DNA from: Thermoplasmatota archaeon
GTDB lineage: Archaea; Thermoplasmatota; JASEFT01
Reading direction: 5' to 3'
DNA: 46,559 nucleotides
NCBI GenBank assembly: GCA_030018475.1
Contig: JASEFT010000004.1
Span: forward strand, 1 to 46,559
Position numbers and translations under genes: made by a program. The first letter of the stretch is position 1; the number at the start of each line of letters is the position of its first letter. The notes under the pieces were generated by a model. It was not told the DNA's origin. It did no database searches and saw nothing but the letters and a program-made list of their open reading frames with translations. This document shows positions 17,160 to 44,770 of the stretch, in pieces.

Positions 17160-17173
17160 TGGACCCGTCGGGA

Positions 17174-17284
17174 ATCTCGATCTCCAGATGAAATACGATT
17201 TATTCTGCACAAAAATGCTTGCGCATTTTTGTGATTCGGATGAGAGCGGAGCTCTCATCCTCTCTCGCATTTCCTTCGGAAATG
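17174..17284 (-). other. tRNA-Ala intron 2 (111 nt, T-loop position 59/60)
   Basis: hBHBh': T-stem TCGGG/CCCGA, central helix UUCG/CGAG, bulges AGC and AUU, inner helix AUUUCC/GGAGAU. The body holds three perfect hairpins: GCATTTCC/GGAAATGC, GGATGAGAGC/GCTCTCATCC and CACAAAAATGC/GCATTTTTGTG. Confidence 0.75.
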
Positions 17285-17306
17285 CTCGAACCCGAGTCCT
17301 CCACAT

Positions 17307-17366
17307 ATCTGGGAAAAGAATGGATTAACCACCGTTTTTCTTTCTTCCCCTGAAAGGTTCCTTTCT
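17307..17366 (-). other. tRNA-Ala intron 1 (60 nt, canonical 37/38 position)
   Basis: hBHBh' layout: anticodon stem, CUUG/CCAG central helix (one mismatch), 3-nt bulges CAA and AUA, inner helix GAAAGG/CUUUUC. Confidence 0.75.
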
Positions 17367-17403
17367 TGCAAGTGTGGCGATCTTCCACTGATCTACGGGC
17401 CCG

Positions 17404-17485
17404 AGCCCTTTCTTTCTCTTTTTCAAAGAGAAAGAAAGCGTTCACGGAAAGAAAGAGAAACTAGGTTATCCTGTAAGGGATAACC
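17404..17485 (+). repeat. three-strand homopurine/homopyrimidine module A (hairpin + mirror-repeat third tract + flanking 8-bp hairpin)
   Basis: AGCCC; Y 17408-17421 CTTTCTTTCTCTTT; loop TTC; R1 17425-17438 AAAGAGAAAGAAAG (perfect complement); linker CGTTCACG; R2 17447-17460 GAAAGAAAGAGAAA (exact reverse of R1); then GGTTATCC-TGTAAG-GGATAACC. Confidence 0.8.
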
Positions 17486-17550
17486 TTAACCATCGTTTGT
17501 TGCTACGCAATCAGTATTCGCAGTTGCATTAACAACCTTCGTATTCTCAA

Positions 17551-17628
17551 GGGTTACAAAGTAACCCTTGCTTCTCTTCTTTTTCCGTCAACGCTTTTTC
17601 TTCTCTTCTCAAGAGAAGAAAAAGGGCT
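17551..17628 (-). repeat. three-strand homopurine/homopyrimidine module B (same architecture as A, inverted orientation)
   Basis: On the plus strand: GGGTTAC-AAA-GTAACCC; Y2 17572-17585 TTCTCTTCTTTTTC; linker CGTCAACG; Y1 17594-17607 CTTTTTCTTCTCTT (exact reverse of Y2); loop CTC; R 17611-17624 AAGAGAAGAAAAAG (perfect complement of Y1); GGCT. Confidence 0.8.
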
Positions 17629-17649
17629 GTAGCTGATAAAGATTTTCTA

Positions 17650-17657: not shown

Positions 17658-17694
17658 TAGGTTTCTAGAAAAATATTTTAGTGGGCCCGATGAG

Positions 17695-17745
17695 ATTTTC
17701 AAGCCGCAACTACGGGTTGAAAATGTAGTGGACGTAGTCCACGGC
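17695..17745 (-). other. tRNA-Ile intron 2 (51 nt, T-loop; exact junction ambiguous within the repeated AAT)
   Basis: TTCGAAT|GCCGTGGACTACGTCCAC...TTGAAAAT|CTCAT. UUCG/UGAA central helix and GCCG/CGGC inner helix with one extra nucleotide (relaxed BHB). Confidence 0.7.
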
Positions 17746-17768
17746 ATTCGAACTCATGACCTCCCGGT

Positions 17769-17916
17769 CACTCACAGCCCTTTCTTACTAAGGAGTGGGA
17801 AGCACTCCTTACGTTCCTAGGAATTGCCTTAGGCAATTCCTGCGGATCTTTTTCACAAAAAGAAAGAAACTGACTGGCGTTTTTCTTTTCTCTTCCAGAG
17901 AAAAGAAAAAGGCTGC
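17769..17916 (-). other. tRNA-Ile intron 1 (148 nt, 37/38)
   Basis: hBHBh': CCCGG/CCGGG stem, CUGA/UGAG central helix (one G.G mismatch), bulges UAG and UGA, inner helix CAGCC/GGCUG. The body holds the AGCC-TTTTTCTTTTCTC-loop-GAGAAAAGAAAAA hairpin plus AGGAATTGCC/GGCAATTCCT and TAAGGAGTG/CACTCCTTA hairpins. Confidence 0.8.
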
Positions 17917-17975
17917 TATCAGCCGGGCGCTCCAACCATGCTAAGCTACGGGCCCACGTTAGCAGGTATGTATGC

Positions 17976-31629: not shown

Positions 31630-31965
31630 ATCTAAGTGTAGTGATCGTATTGAACTCTGGTTGATCCTGCCAGAGGTCGCCGCTATTGGGATACGCTTAA
31701 GCCATGCGAGTCTAAGGAACGCAAGTTCCTTGGCGTACTGCTCAGTAACACGTGGATAATTTACCCTTAGGTGGGGAATAACTTCGGGAAACTGAGGATA
31801 ATACCCCATAGGCTTAGAATGCTGGAATGCTTCTAAGCTCAAAGCTTCGGCGCCTAAGGATAAGTCTGTGGCCTATTAGGTTGTAGCAAGTGTAACTTAC
31901 TTGCTAGCCTACGATGGGTACGGGCGCTGAGAGGCGTTGCCCGGAGATGGACTCTGAGACATGAG

Positions 31966-31997
<32 letters not shown>

Positions 31998-32384
31998 ACT
32001 CCACAATGTGCGCAAGCACGATGGGGGAATCCCAAGTGCCTATACTTAATGTATAGGCTGTTCCCTTGTCCAAAAAACAAGGGGAGTAAGGGCTGGGTAA
32101 GACGGGTGCCAGCCGCCGCGGTAATACCCGCAGCCCAAGTGGCGATCACTTTTATTTGGTCTAAAACGTCCGTAGCTGGTTCAGTAAATTTTTGGGTAAA
32201 TCGAAATGCTTAACATTTCGAATTCCGAGAAGACTGCTGGACTTGAGACAGAGTGGGGTCAGAAGTACTCCTGGGGTAGGGGTGAAATCCTGTAATCCTA
32301 GGAGGACTACCAGTGGCGAAGGCGTCTGACTAAAGCTGCTCTGACAGTGAGGGACGAAGCCCTGGGGCGCAAACGGGATTAGAT

Positions 32385-32483
32385 AGAAGCCTTTCTTTCT
32401 CTTTTCGGAAAAGAGAAAGAAACTCTTCAGGGAAAGAGAAAAGAAAATTTCTTTTTTCTTTTCCCCTGAAGGACTTCCTAGAT
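32385..32483 (+). other. 16S rRNA mini-intron (99 nt) in the 790 loop, with a canonical BHB
   Basis: GGGATTAGAT|A...AT|ACCCCGG. Outer helix CGGG/CCCG, central helix UUAG/CUAG, bulges AUA and AUA, inner helix GAAGCC/GG(A)CUUC. Splicing restores GGATTAGATACCCCGGTAGTCC. Confidence 0.8.
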
Positions 32484-32582
32484 ACCCCGGTAGTCCAGGG
32501 TGTAAACGCTGCAGACTTGGTGCAGGGGAAGCTACGAGCTTGCCCTGTGCCGGAGAGAAGTTGTTAAGTCTGCTACCTGGGG

Positions 32583-32629
<47 letters not shown>

Positions 32630-33036
32630 GCAACGGGTGGAGCGTGCGGTTTAATTGGATTCAACGCCGAGAAGCTTACCGGGGGCGACGGATATATGAA
32701 GGTCAAGCTAACGACTTTACCAGATTATCCGAGAGGTGGTGCATGGCCGTCGTCAGTTCGTACCGTAAGGCATTCTGTTAAGTCAGATAACGAACAAGAC
32801 CCCTGCTTTTAGTTGCAAACCGGAGCTCCGGCTCTGGTGCGACACTAAAGGGACTGCTGGCGCTAAGTCAGAGGAAGGAGGGGGCTACGGTAGGTCAGTA
32901 TGCCCCTAATCCCCCGGGCTACACGCGCGCTACAAAGGCTGGGACAATGGGCTACGATGCCGAAAGGCAAAGTCAATCCCTAAACCCAGTCATAGTTCGG
33001 ATTGAGGATTGCAACTCATCCTCATGAAGCTGGAAT

Positions 33037-33086
33037 TCGCAGGAGTAAACTCCTTCTCTCAGCAGTTTGCTCCGCAAACAGCAGAT
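33037..33086 (+). other. second ~50-nt insertion in the 16S rRNA (between GGAAT and CCGTAGTAATCGCG); boundaries approximate
   Basis: Conserved GCTGGAAT(C)CGTAGTAATCGCG is interrupted. The insert folds into AGGAG-TAAA-CTCCT and CAGCAGTTTGC-TCC-GCAAACAGCAG (two A.A mismatches). Confidence 0.65.
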
Positions 33087-33339
33087 CCGTAGTAATCGCG
33101 TATCAAAAATGCGCGGTGAATATGCCCCTGCTCCTTGCACACACCGCCCGTCAAGCCATCCGAGTTGTGTCTAAGTGAGGGTGAAGTTATTGCTTCGCTC
33201 AAACTTGGGTTCAGCGAGGAGGGCTAAGTCGTAACAAGGTATCCGTAGGGGAACCTGCGGATGGATCACCTCCTACGTTATAGAAAGGTGTGATTCGAAG
33301 CTGCTTGCAATGCAGCTAATGACGCAGGTCTGCCTTGAA

Positions 33340-33368
33340 TTGGTGGGTAAAAAGCTTTCAAACGTCAG
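33340..33368 (+). promoter_or_regulatory. 3' strand of the 16S rRNA processing stem
   Basis: Complementary to 31595-31629. Confidence 0.75.
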
Positions 33369-33487
33369 TGTATTTTTTCAAGCGTCCGGCGAATCGGCGT
33401 TTAGAAGTTTGAACACTAGGTTAAGGTATAGAAAAATTTGCGATTTAACACTCAAAAATTATCTTTTTCGTCTCCGATTTTATTCTA

Positions 33488-33973
33488 CTAAATCTCACTA
33501 ATTCTCCTCAGGACATCTCTGTAAAGCAGTGCGTTTATTCTAAAATCACTTTCAACTAATTTGTGAATTATATCTAATGCTTTCTTCTTTTTAACTTTCT
33601 TACTCTCAACAGCGCCAACTATCAAACCTAACAGCTCCGTGTACTCTCTCTTTTCAATATCTGCTATCCGCCTTGCACTTAATTCATCAATAATTAGTCT
33701 ATTGCCTTTAGGAGTAAGAAACAGTGTAGCTTCACCTTTATCAAGACCGTATTTCGTAAATTTAGTTACATTGACACTAGTTATTACTGATATTATCCAA
33801 TCACCAATCGCACTCTTGATACGCTCGTTTTCCGGAAAATCGTAGCGCAAAAGCCCTTTCTCAATCGTTTTCGTTATATACACCTTACCAAACAACTCTT
33901 TTAAAAACTCGAGCTCTCCAATTTTAGCTAATGCAATTAGAGTGGAGGAATCTACAAAAGTACGCATAATCAC
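33488..33973 (-). CDS. PIN-domain protein (DUF3368/COG2405-like), putative toxin
   Basis: N-terminal FVDSSTLIALAKIG PIN-type acidic motif, 161 aa, 4-nt overlap with the upstream small gene. Confidence 0.65.
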   Translation of the reverse strand: MIMRTFVDSSTLIALAKIGELEFLKELFGKVYITKTIEKGLLRYDFPENERIKSAIGDWIISVITSVNVTKFTKYGLDKGEATLFLTPKGNRLIIDELSARRIADIEKREYTELLGLIVGAVESKKVKKKKALDIIHKLVESDFRINALLYRDVLRRISEI

Positions 33974-34284
33974 CGCTTAAGCCACTTTTTAGATTTTTCG
34001 ATATCGCGCGCTAATTCAGTTGCAGAATATCTAAAAAACGGTATTTCCCTTCTCGCTAGGTAATCACACATCTCCTGAATACTTACATCTGCAAACTCTG
34101 CAGCTTTACAAAGAGTAAATTCGTTACTCAGATATTTTTTCATTGCAATTTCAAGTTTCAAAGCTTTTATACCCTCATGAAGCGCATTGCGAGCCACTTC
34201 CGATTTTGACATATGCAGAACTTTTGTAAGCTCTTCTACGTCCTCAACTTCCTCTTCCGGCAATCGTATCTGTAAATTCTCCAT
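33970..34284 (-). CDS. UPF0175-like antitoxin with N-terminal ribbon-helix-helix
   Basis: RHH-like LQIRLPEEEVEDVEEL...SKSEVARNAL, then a UPF0175-like helix region (LCKAAEFADVSIQEM); paired with the PIN gene. Confidence 0.6.
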   Translation of the reverse strand: MENLQIRLPEEEVEDVEELTKVLHMSKSEVARNALHEGIKALKLEIAMKKYLSNEFTLCKAAEFADVSIQEMCDYLARREIPFFRYSATELARDIEKSKKWLKR

Positions 34285-44070: not shown

Positions 44071-44093
44071 CCATACTTGGATTAAATGAAAGA

Positions 44094-44152
44094 AGCCCTT
44101 TTCTTTTTCTTCCAAAGAAAAAGAAAAGTCCTTCAGGGGAAAAGAAAAAGAA
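44094..44152 (+). repeat. three-strand homopurine/homopyrimidine module C
   Basis: AGCC; C98+Y 44099-44111 TTTTCTTTTTCTT; loop CCA; R1 44115-44128 AAGAAAAAGAAAAG (perfect complement); linker TCCTTCAGGG; R2 44139-44152 GAAAAGAAAAAGAA (exact reverse of R1). Confidence 0.8.
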
Positions 44153-44188
44153 TAGAACAATATGCGAACTTGATTAGAAGGATATTAA

Positions 44189-44770
44189 ATGAAATATCTA
44201 ATTATTACATGTGGAGTAATAGGTACGGGCAAGAGTACAATTGCAAAAGCTCTTGCAAAGAGGACAGGTATGAAAGTCATATCCTCAGATTATGTCAGAA
44301 AGAGCATTGTTGCAGGTATTCCACCTGAAGCTCATAGATATGAAAAATTTGGTGAAGGCATATACTCGAAAGAATTCTCAGAAAGAACTTATCTAAAAAT
44401 GCTGGAGCTTGCAAAAGTGCAATTAACCAGAAACAAATCTGTTATTTTAGATGGCGCTTTTAGCAAAAGATGGCAACGCGTTAAAGCTTATGAGACTGCA
44501 AAAGAAACTGATGCAAGATTCTTGTGCGTTGAGTTCATATGCAGTAAAGAAGAGCTGATAAAGAGGCTTGAAAAAAGAGCTCTGAGCAAAAGAGGCGTTT
44601 CAAACGGAAGGATTGAGATACTAGCTGAGCATGAAGCTAGCTTTGAAAAGGTATCGGAATTTTCGGAAGAGCTGCACATTATAATTGATACCACATGTAG
44701 GAAAGAAGATTGCGTACAATCTGTTTTGGCTAGGCTGAACGAAAAGTTAAAGTTGAAACATTGCTATTAA
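44189..44770 (+). CDS. P-loop kinase (AAA_33/gluconate-kinase-like fold), substrate unknown
   Basis: Walker A GVIGTGKST near the N-terminus; 193 aa. Confidence 0.55.
   Translation: MKYLIITCGVIGTGKSTIAKALAKRTGMKVISSDYVRKSIVAGIPPEAHRYEKFGEGIYSKEFSERTYLKMLELAKVQLTRNKSVILDGAFSKRWQRVKAYETAKETDARFLCVEFICSKEELIKRLEKRALSKRGVSNGRIEILAEHEASFEKVSEFSEELHIIIDTTCRKEDCVQSVLARLNEKLKLKHCY

Follow-up and report, generated by a model that had tools for sequence, protein, structure and literature searches.

A probable ORF-less bulge-helix-bulge mini-intron in the 790 loop of an archaeal 16S rRNA gene

[quoted passage not shown] The published archaeal 16S rRNA intron loci are 374, 548, 722, 781, 803, 901, 908, 919, 978, 1093, 1205, 1213 and 1391 (Jay & Inskeep 2015, PMC4496867), and 16S insertions were reported only in Crenarchaeota, Aigarchaeota and Micrarchaeota (Sakai et al. 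2022). BHB introns have been described beside group I introns in archaeal rRNA genes, the group I hosts including Micrarchaeota and Woesearchaeota (Nawrocki et al.). The types of EndA have been reviewed (PMC5829648), and DPANN EndAs carrying an L3 loop correlate with disrupted tRNA genes. Archaeal pre-tRNA BHB introns include multiple and non-canonical ones, for which transposition among tRNA genes has been proposed.

In the window studied here (the whole stretch of DNA that was analysed, 46,559 nucleotides), positions 32385-32483 are read, with a probability of roughly 0.85, as an ORF-less archaeal BHB intron that is excised from the 790 loop of the 16S rRNA with ligation of the exons. The segment resembles the short 'hairpin' class of Thermoproteales, Desulfurococcales and Aigarchaeota introns in its conserved 16S position, its BHB junctions, its non-coding body and its disruption of primer sites (PMC4496867). 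It differs from those introns in lying at 793/794, outside the 13 published loci, and in having a body built from a purine/pyrimidine hairpin repeat that is shared with the tRNA introns of its own genome; its host is an uncultivated archaeon of ~39% G+C, with relatives in groundwater and hot-spring metagenomes, whereas the published hosts are TACK hyperthermophiles (PMC4496867). The preliminary description had mentioned a reported insertion site near position 781, and the present site is near to, yet distinct from, that locus, 793 not being among the 13 (PMC4496867).

The motif and the cut rule are those of archaeal pre-tRNA BHB introns, and double introns and related bodies occur in the same genome, but the host RNA is an rRNA and the outer helix is a native rRNA stem, not the anticodon stem. 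EndA and RtcB also act on rRNA precursors at BHB motifs in the processing stems (PMC7714728; bioRxiv 10.64898/2026.03.23.713588); such motifs flank and release the whole rRNA, whereas the motif described here stands inside the mature sequence and needs exon ligation. The insertions of Micrarchaeota (ARMAN-2, ARM-1) likewise lie in the 16S of uncultivated or symbiotic archaea outside TACK, but they measure ~500 bp, have E. coli 1093 as their site, code for a hypothetical protein and were stated to be of uncertain splicing, whereas the present segment is 99 nt, ORF-less and has a clear BHB (PMC8784108). In the literature searched, whose coverage was incomplete, neither an intron at site 793 or 1339 nor DPANN-type archaea with multi-mini-intron 16S genes were described. 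A BHB is absent from bacterial rRNA intervening sequences and CPR 16S insertions, which either are excised by RNase III and left unligated or are group I or group II introns that splice themselves; in common with them, the segment would be missing from mature rRNA, lies in a conserved rRNA region and belongs to a kind of insert that has escaped primer surveys. The ORF-less BHB rRNA intron is a known entity; the novelty here lies in its site, in the lineages that host it and in its connection with a dispersed hairpin repeat.

The archaeal 16S rRNA gene occupies 31654-33274 on the plus strand (1621 nt) and was matched by Rfam RF01959 with 1452.5 bits over model positions 1-1478. The alignment to the Rfam archaeal SSU model contains two inserts, of ~100 and ~50 nt. 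The first falls inside GGAUUAGAU-ACCC, between ...GGAUUAGAUA and CCCGGUAG..., with a posterior probability of ~1 on either flank, and the second falls inside GCUGGAAUCCGUAGUAA. Read directly from the sequence, the junctions of the first are ...AACGGGATTAGAT / AGAAGCC...CTTCCTAGAT / ACCCCGGTAGTCC..., so the universally conserved sequence is split into GGGATTAGAT and ACCCCGGTAGTCC by 99 nt, just as the preliminary description had it; the alignment places the insert in the 790 loop and leaves the rest of the 16S intact and high-scoring. Excision of 32385-32483 restores GGAUUAGAUACCC together with the conserved gene length, which is 1472 nt after subtraction of both introns, compared with the 1478-position model. 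The insertion point is between E. coli U793 and A794, on the basis of primer 806R, which we take to cover E. coli 787-806 and which makes U793 the end of exon 1 and A794 the start of exon 2. The insert is as tiny and ORF-less as first described: the window ORF list holds no ORF, LAGLIDADG or other, inside the 99 nt, and the sole ORF overlapping it (32161-32595, minus strand, TTG start) runs antisense through the rRNA. The features of the gene and of the insert, all on the plus strand, are as follows.

31654-33274, plus strand: 16S rRNA gene, Rfam RF01959.
32374-32377, plus strand: outer helix h, 5' strand CGGG, part of the native helix-24 stem; pairs with 32486-32489 and is covarying or conserved in 7 sequences.
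32379-32382, plus strand: central helix, exon strand UUAG, E. coli 788-791; pairs with 32478-32481 (4/4) and is invariant in 7 same-site introns.
32383-32385, plus strand: 5' bulge AU-A (here and below the hyphen marks the cut), with the predicted cut after 32384 (E. coli U793).
32385-32483, plus strand: mini-intron, 99 nt, without ORF, from the Rfam alignment and the register test; the equivalent 32380-32478 is missing in a relative (X2 record 8, below).
32386-32391, plus strand: inner helix h', 5' strand GAAGCC; pairs with 32471-32477 around bulged A32473, and the homologous helix covaries.
32392-32422, plus strand: hairpin 1, with a CGGA loop between a pyrimidine run and a purine run, from folding; paralogue at 17407-17438.
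32424-32472, plus strand: hairpin 2, CUCUUCAGGGAAAGAGAAAAGAAAA / UUUUUUCUUUUCCCCUGAAGG, from folding; 24-nt exact match to 44126-44149.
32478-32481, plus strand: central helix, intron strand CUAG, from the register test and the same-site alignment.
32482-32484, plus strand: 3' bulge AU-A, with the predicted cut after 32483; A32484 is E. coli A794.
32486-32489, plus strand: outer helix h, 3' strand CCCG, from sequence and fold; C32485 faces A32378.
33035-33084, plus strand: second mini-intron, 50 nt, without ORF, between E. coli A1339 and A1340; an insert in the Rfam alignment.

The surroundings of the gene were also inspected. There is no 23S gene after the 16S at 33275-34284, and the rRNA genes are therefore taken to be unlinked. 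Directly 3' of the 16S, on the opposite strand, the same interval holds an RHH/UPF0175 and PIN-like pair resembling a toxin-antitoxin module. A second assembly covering this 16S was sought through the neighbouring proteins and was not found, the three upstream proteins tried giving no record. The downstream PIN protein matched a 1350-nt contig (SRR23186779) that ends within the 16S 3' region, and contig JASEIT010000004.1 of GCA_030017735.1 starts ~455 nt past the 16S.

The sequence TAGATA stands at both junctions (32380-85 and 32479-84), so there are seven boundary registers with one and the same spliced product. A BHB was formed by one of the seven only, that with exon 1 ending at 32384 and the intron at 32483. 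This register scored 4/4 in the central helix, 5/6 in the inner helix and 4/6 in the outer helix, while the remaining six reached at most 3/4 in the central helix and at most 3/6 in each flanking helix. A loose BHB scan of the whole window (G.U allowed, spans up to 300 nt) gave ~3000 hits on two strands and was non-discriminating, and a conditional shuffle test was used in its place, in which the exons were fixed, the 99 nt were shuffled and any insertion point within +/-8 nt was allowed. Equal BHB quality was found in 0.13% of 200,000 composition-matched shuffled inserts.

The structure comprises two 3-nt bulges on opposite strands, a 4-bp helix between them and helices outside, and the bulge geometry is canonical, each bulge lying 3' of its central-helix strand and being cut after the second base, as at tRNA 37/38. 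The preliminary description had called the motif textbook. The motif is a good one, with a unique register, but it is slightly relaxed: the central helix includes a wobble pair (U32379.G32481), and an A32378.C32485 mismatch, which is the closing pair of the native 790 loop, stands between the central and outer helices beside the 3' bulge. Within the proposed inner pairing GAAGCC/GG(A)CUUC, GAAG/CUUC is secure and the rest competes with an extension of hairpin 2. Folding with the BHB enforced cost 1.3 kcal/mol relative to the MFE (-52.1 versus -53.4), and the 4-bp central helix was not produced by unconstrained or soft-constrained folding of the window sequence. Free folding yielded two internal hairpins, 32392-32422 and 32424-32472 (z = -3.4), and the two purine/pyrimidine hairpins first noted in the body are therefore real. 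A C/D-box guide was looked for in the intron by eye, and CUGA was present while the RUGAUGA box was absent. The SSU rRNA was the sole Rfam family above threshold in the window, with no group I or group II ribozyme, and 99 nt is also far too short for membership of either group.

These features suggest the following route. In the primary transcript, the penultimate CUAG of the intron would pair with exon UUAG, the two intron ends would pair mutually as GAAG(CC)/(GG)ACUUC, and the native helix-24 stem would close outside, a pairing that would present two 3-nt AUA bulges four base pairs apart. EndA, the tRNA-splicing endonuclease, would then cut after the second base of each bulge, that is after 32384 and 32483, and the RtcB ligase would join the exons, exactly restoring GGAUUAGAUACCC with a ligated junction reading GGGAUUAGAU-ACCCCGG. 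The intron would be released, probably as a circle.

Among the 30 window ORFs scanned against Pfam, EndA and RtcB were absent. Both enzymes presumably exist in the host, because four tRNA introns in the window imply splicing enzymes. These introns lie in two tRNA genes.

17680-17955, minus strand: tRNA-Ile(GAU) with two introns, 17916-17769 (148 nt, at 37/38) and 17746-17696 (51 nt, in the T-loop).
17160-17402, minus strand: tRNA-Ala(UGC, G3.U70) with two introns, 17366-17307 (60 nt, at 37/38) and one of ~110 nt in the T-loop.

Both tRNAs were missed by ARAGORN on the genome and were recognised after in-silico splicing, and Rfam searches of the tRNA region at E <=10 returned only spurious miRNA-like hairpin hits. 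In both genes the central helix of the 37/38 BHB is mismatched at nucleotide 34. The introns of both tRNAs carry related purine/pyrimidine hairpins, and the intron bodies of this genome are mutually related in sequence. The second 16S insert (33035-33084) has a BHB of its own, with GCUG/CAGC as the central helix and bulges GA-A and AG-A. It has one valid register (4/4, 4/6, 4/6), a shuffle frequency of 0.3-0.5% and junctions that share only a 2-nt repeat, and its site is that of the P-site contacts G1338/A1339. Taken together, the second 16S BHB intron and the four tRNA introns indicate that the splicing route is heavily used in this genome.

Immediately upstream of tRNA-Ala, at 17403-17630 on the minus strand, lies a hairpin-packed element of ~225 nt (MFE -103.5 kcal/mol, z = -8.4) with no Rfam match. 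Its two ends, AGCCCUUUUUC... and ...GAAAGGGCU, pair with each other and adjoin the tRNA 5' end, and the element may represent a structured leader or a segment that is excised.

The same insertion site was searched for in other genomes with the pattern GGATTAGAT, gap, YTAGATACCC. Across 185,579 species genomes 112 stretches matched, three of them in archaeal 16S context, namely L023, L052 (Aenigmatarchaeota) and L070; three others were duplicated bacterial 16S segments, and the remaining ones inspected lay outside rRNA genes. A scan of JGI metagenomes with the pattern plus TAGTCC returned L114, L116, L117, L118 and L120, plus two bacterial assembly duplications. As L120 is identical to L023 and L118, these are six further distinct same-site inserts, 47-82 nt long, in archaeal 16S genes, and their lengths are as follows.

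L023, L118 and L120: 74 nt.
L052: 66 nt.
L070: 65 nt.
L114: 47 nt.
L116: 82 nt.
L117: 67 nt.

The host 16S genes are 73-75% identical to that of the window (four complete genes compared). Each of the six introns has A as its first base and CUAGAU as its last six, UUAG/CUAG and the AU-A bulges are retained throughout, and the same-site introns share a body architecture in which a pyrimidine run, loop and purine run precede CYUUSRGGRAAA. In a 64-column core alignment of the seven same-site introns, 97% of cells were paired. Both sides had changed in 6/8 pairs of the inner helix and in eight pairs overall. The observed pairing or covariation was reached by none of 500 column shuffles, and shifting the partner by one column cut pairing to 63-67%. 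Structure is thus conserved over sequence, in a set of few sequences (seven) from which the structure was itself derived. The BHB-enforced fold was 0.5-2.8 kcal/mol from the MFE in 6/7 introns, and for L116 it scored below the free MFE.

Relatives of the window 16S are present in two DNA metagenomes, X1 and X2, the latter from groundwater. A contig of 1839 nt in X2 (record 8) aligns to 32111-32379 and, with no break in its own sequence, resumes at 32479-32603; identity to the window is ~94-98% over the three pieces that align. It is without exactly 99 nt, and its sequence is the same product as that of excising 32385-32483. Record 11 of X2 jumps from 33034 to 33085 and is without the second insert (50 nt). 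In X1, a 1389-nt contig passes from ...GGGGAGCGAACGGGAT directly into TAGATACCCC, so that intron 1 is absent, while the second insert is present. From their sequences, the X1 and X2 contigs are read as intron-less alleles. The interrupted conserved loops differ between close relatives, which is the behaviour of introns and not of functional rRNA segments. The unique register, the shuffle test, the alleles without the 99 nt and the six same-site introns with covariation together bear out the initial proposal that a BHB cut after the second bulge base restores the loop.

The X2 relative's 16S also has 58 extra nt at window 32111/32112 (E. coli ~520/521, in the 515-533 region), where the window has none.

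The same comparison bears on whether the mature rRNA could retain the 99 nt as an expansion of helix 24 specific to this lineage. Expansion segments occur in archaeal rRNAs, and the two stable local hairpins could point away from the ribosome. The insert, however, splits the loop itself without extending the stem, is precisely absent from close relatives and has ends constrained to a BHB that a retained expansion would not need. The RNA of relatives is also at odds with retention. In groundwater and sediment metatranscriptomes, the exons of L120 reached an RNA depth of 1e4-1e5 at >=97% identity, while every insert had zero depth. Retention is accordingly considered extremely improbable.

Joined exons were found in RNA for two of the same-site relatives. 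In L117, metatranscriptome contigs skip 2619-2694 (76 nt), 2543-2585 (43 nt) and 2411-2477 (67 nt), the last being the 793-site intron, and one RNA contig of 151 nt covers three exons with a single mismatch. The three joints coincide with BHB-predicted boundaries, within a repeat ambiguity of 2-6 nt. In L120, an RNA contig of 391 nt reads GGGGAGCAA / CCGGGATTAGAT / ACCCCG across its joints. These RNA contigs are short unitigs and, around the universal 790 loop, are not assignable to one strain, so that an intron-less source is possible. Among RNA runs queried with the whole 16S of the window, the best matched 15% of its words, all from conserved stretches, and no run matched the sequence of intron 32385-32483; runs X3 and X4 yielded only short contigs, from conserved 16S stretches. 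As the RNA evidence comes from relatives only, we infer cleavage and ligation in the window's organism from sequence.

In L120, 7585-7703 (minus strand) contains twin introns, one of 33 nt at the known locus E. coli 781 and one of 74 nt at E. coli 793, with a micro-exon of 12 nt, CCGGGATTAGAT, between them; both introns are missing from RNA contigs.

Alternatively, cleavage at the bulges, or at the hairpins by a different RNase, might release the insert while the exons stay unjoined, leaving a 16S fragmented in the 790 loop. Bacterial 23S and 16S intervening sequences, which are well known to be excised without ligation, offer a precedent in their removal by RNase III, and the ligated junction was seen in relatives' RNA only. 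Nevertheless, the 790 loop contacts the P site and the large subunit and would be severed by a break at U793/A794, BHB cleavage products are natural RtcB substrates, and relatives' RNA contigs cross the junctions continuously at the BHB-predicted positions. Fragmentation is therefore regarded as very unlikely, and splicing with ligation remains the preferred reading.

The preliminary description had assigned the intron body to a module family, and significant paralogues were indeed found by BLAST against the window. A copy at 44126-44149 matches 24/24 nt (E = 1.4e-8), and copies upstream of tRNA-Ala lie at 17409-17438 (E = 2e-4) and 17407-17422 (E = 8e-4), together spanning 17407-17438. A weaker match, at 17881-17909 in a tRNA-Ile intron, is exact over 14 nt (E = 0.013) and 80% identical over 25 nt. 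The 44.1-kb copy extends beyond the exact match.

44092-44155, plus strand: partial intron-body copy comprising GAAGCCC, hairpin 1 and the hairpin 2 left arm, and not part of an RNA gene; E = 1.4e-8.

This copy lies between two copies of GGAT(A)TTAAATGAAA, at 44079-44091 and 44180-44194 (a ~13-nt direct repeat), the second of which includes the start codon for a P-loop kinase ORF. On its upstream side the copy is flanked by GGATTAAAT, which is similar to the 16S exon GGATTAGAT, and no BHB was obtained at 44079-44194. In X1 and X2 the word depth over 32369-32478 was ~40-48, compared with ~8, which suggests that the hairpin module is multi-copy in the relatives' genomes.

In L117, one intron body (A-AGCUUUUUC...GAAAAAGCU) was found at three 16S sites. 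The three copies end in CUAGAU, CGGUAU and GCGGAU, each end being complementary to four exon bases two nucleotides upstream of the 5' cut, and among these three sites a direct repeat occurs at 793 only. The TAGATA repeat at 793 is accounted for by the near-palindromic UUAG/CUAG together with the constant first A and last AU. A target duplication was a serious candidate, given the identical bulge bases and the direct repeat around the 44.1-kb copy. A MITE-like target duplication was rejected as a general rule on account of the L117 copies without repeats (CGGUAU and GCGGAU), and the early view that the repeat is no target-site duplication holds, since the L117 paralogues at two other sites are exon-complementary without one.

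These data also bear on an accident at the DNA level, either a MITE-like repeat that inactivated the 16S with duplication of TAGATA or a repeat-driven mis-join by the assembler. The body does belong to a repeat family with further members in the window and, apparently, multiple copies in relatives, and direct repeats flank both the insert (6 nt) and the 44.1-kb copy (~13 nt). Against this, six distinct sequences share the exact position with different bodies and the same BHB, the terminal CUAG is exon-complementary, as are the ends of paralogues elsewhere that have no direct repeat, and the remaining gene is an intact, high-scoring 16S; nor is a precise, restorable junction expected from a mis-join. 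Such an accident is judged highly improbable, and an intron removed at the RNA level is again the better account of the insert.

A broader and more tentative reading, held at somewhat less than even odds, is that 32385-32483 is one member of a mobile, ORF-less, modular family of mini-introns colonising the most conserved functional rRNA loops, as well as tRNAs, in several deeply divergent uncultivated archaeal lineages. The proposed formula for this family is a 5'-A, an inner-helix strand, pyrimidine/purine hairpins, the second inner-helix strand, 4 nt complementary to the exon and AU-3', and the rRNA loops concerned may be those at about 520, 781, 793, 1339 and others. It is supported by the recurrence of one body at several sites, where just the terminal 'guide' bases differ, and by the many inserts in the 16S genes of some relatives (below). 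That the body is a dispersed repeat in the window's lineage and that closely related strains differ in the sites occupied points to recent gain by a mechanism without a homing endonuclease.

Several same-site hosts have 16S genes of 2.3-3.5 kb (L117 560-3576, L070 814-4270, L052 5012-7645 and L114 2485-4742). Each contains 4-17 inserts of at least 15 nt, with several sites common between lineages, and most of the short inserts have good BHB motifs.

It had been predicted that the intron would defeat universal primers spanning the site, and this was true in part. The 806R target in the gene reads CCTAGATACCCCGGTAGTCC and, because of the TAGATA repeat, keeps 18/20 matches; both mismatches fall at the primer 3' end. 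For forward primers with the ending ...GATACCC, at least the last three bases are lost in the gene. The spliced RNA sequence matches 806R perfectly. Since the junctions damage 806R/785F-type primer sites, amplicon surveys would under-count such organisms, and rRNA and tRNA finders mishandle such genes, ARAGORN having missed both window tRNAs.

Nearly all catalogued endonuclease-spliced rRNA introns come from hyperthermophilic Crenarchaeota and Aigarchaeota, where they occupy 13 sites in the 16S. The present work would add a tiny ORF-less case at 793/794 and a second at G1338-A1339 in an unrelated, AT-rich uncultivated archaeon, the 793 site being occupied also in Aenigmatarchaeota-like and other lineages. 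With strain-variable sites, recurring bodies and a dispersed repeat, both the origin and the spread of BHB introns without homing endonucleases may become directly testable in these archaea.
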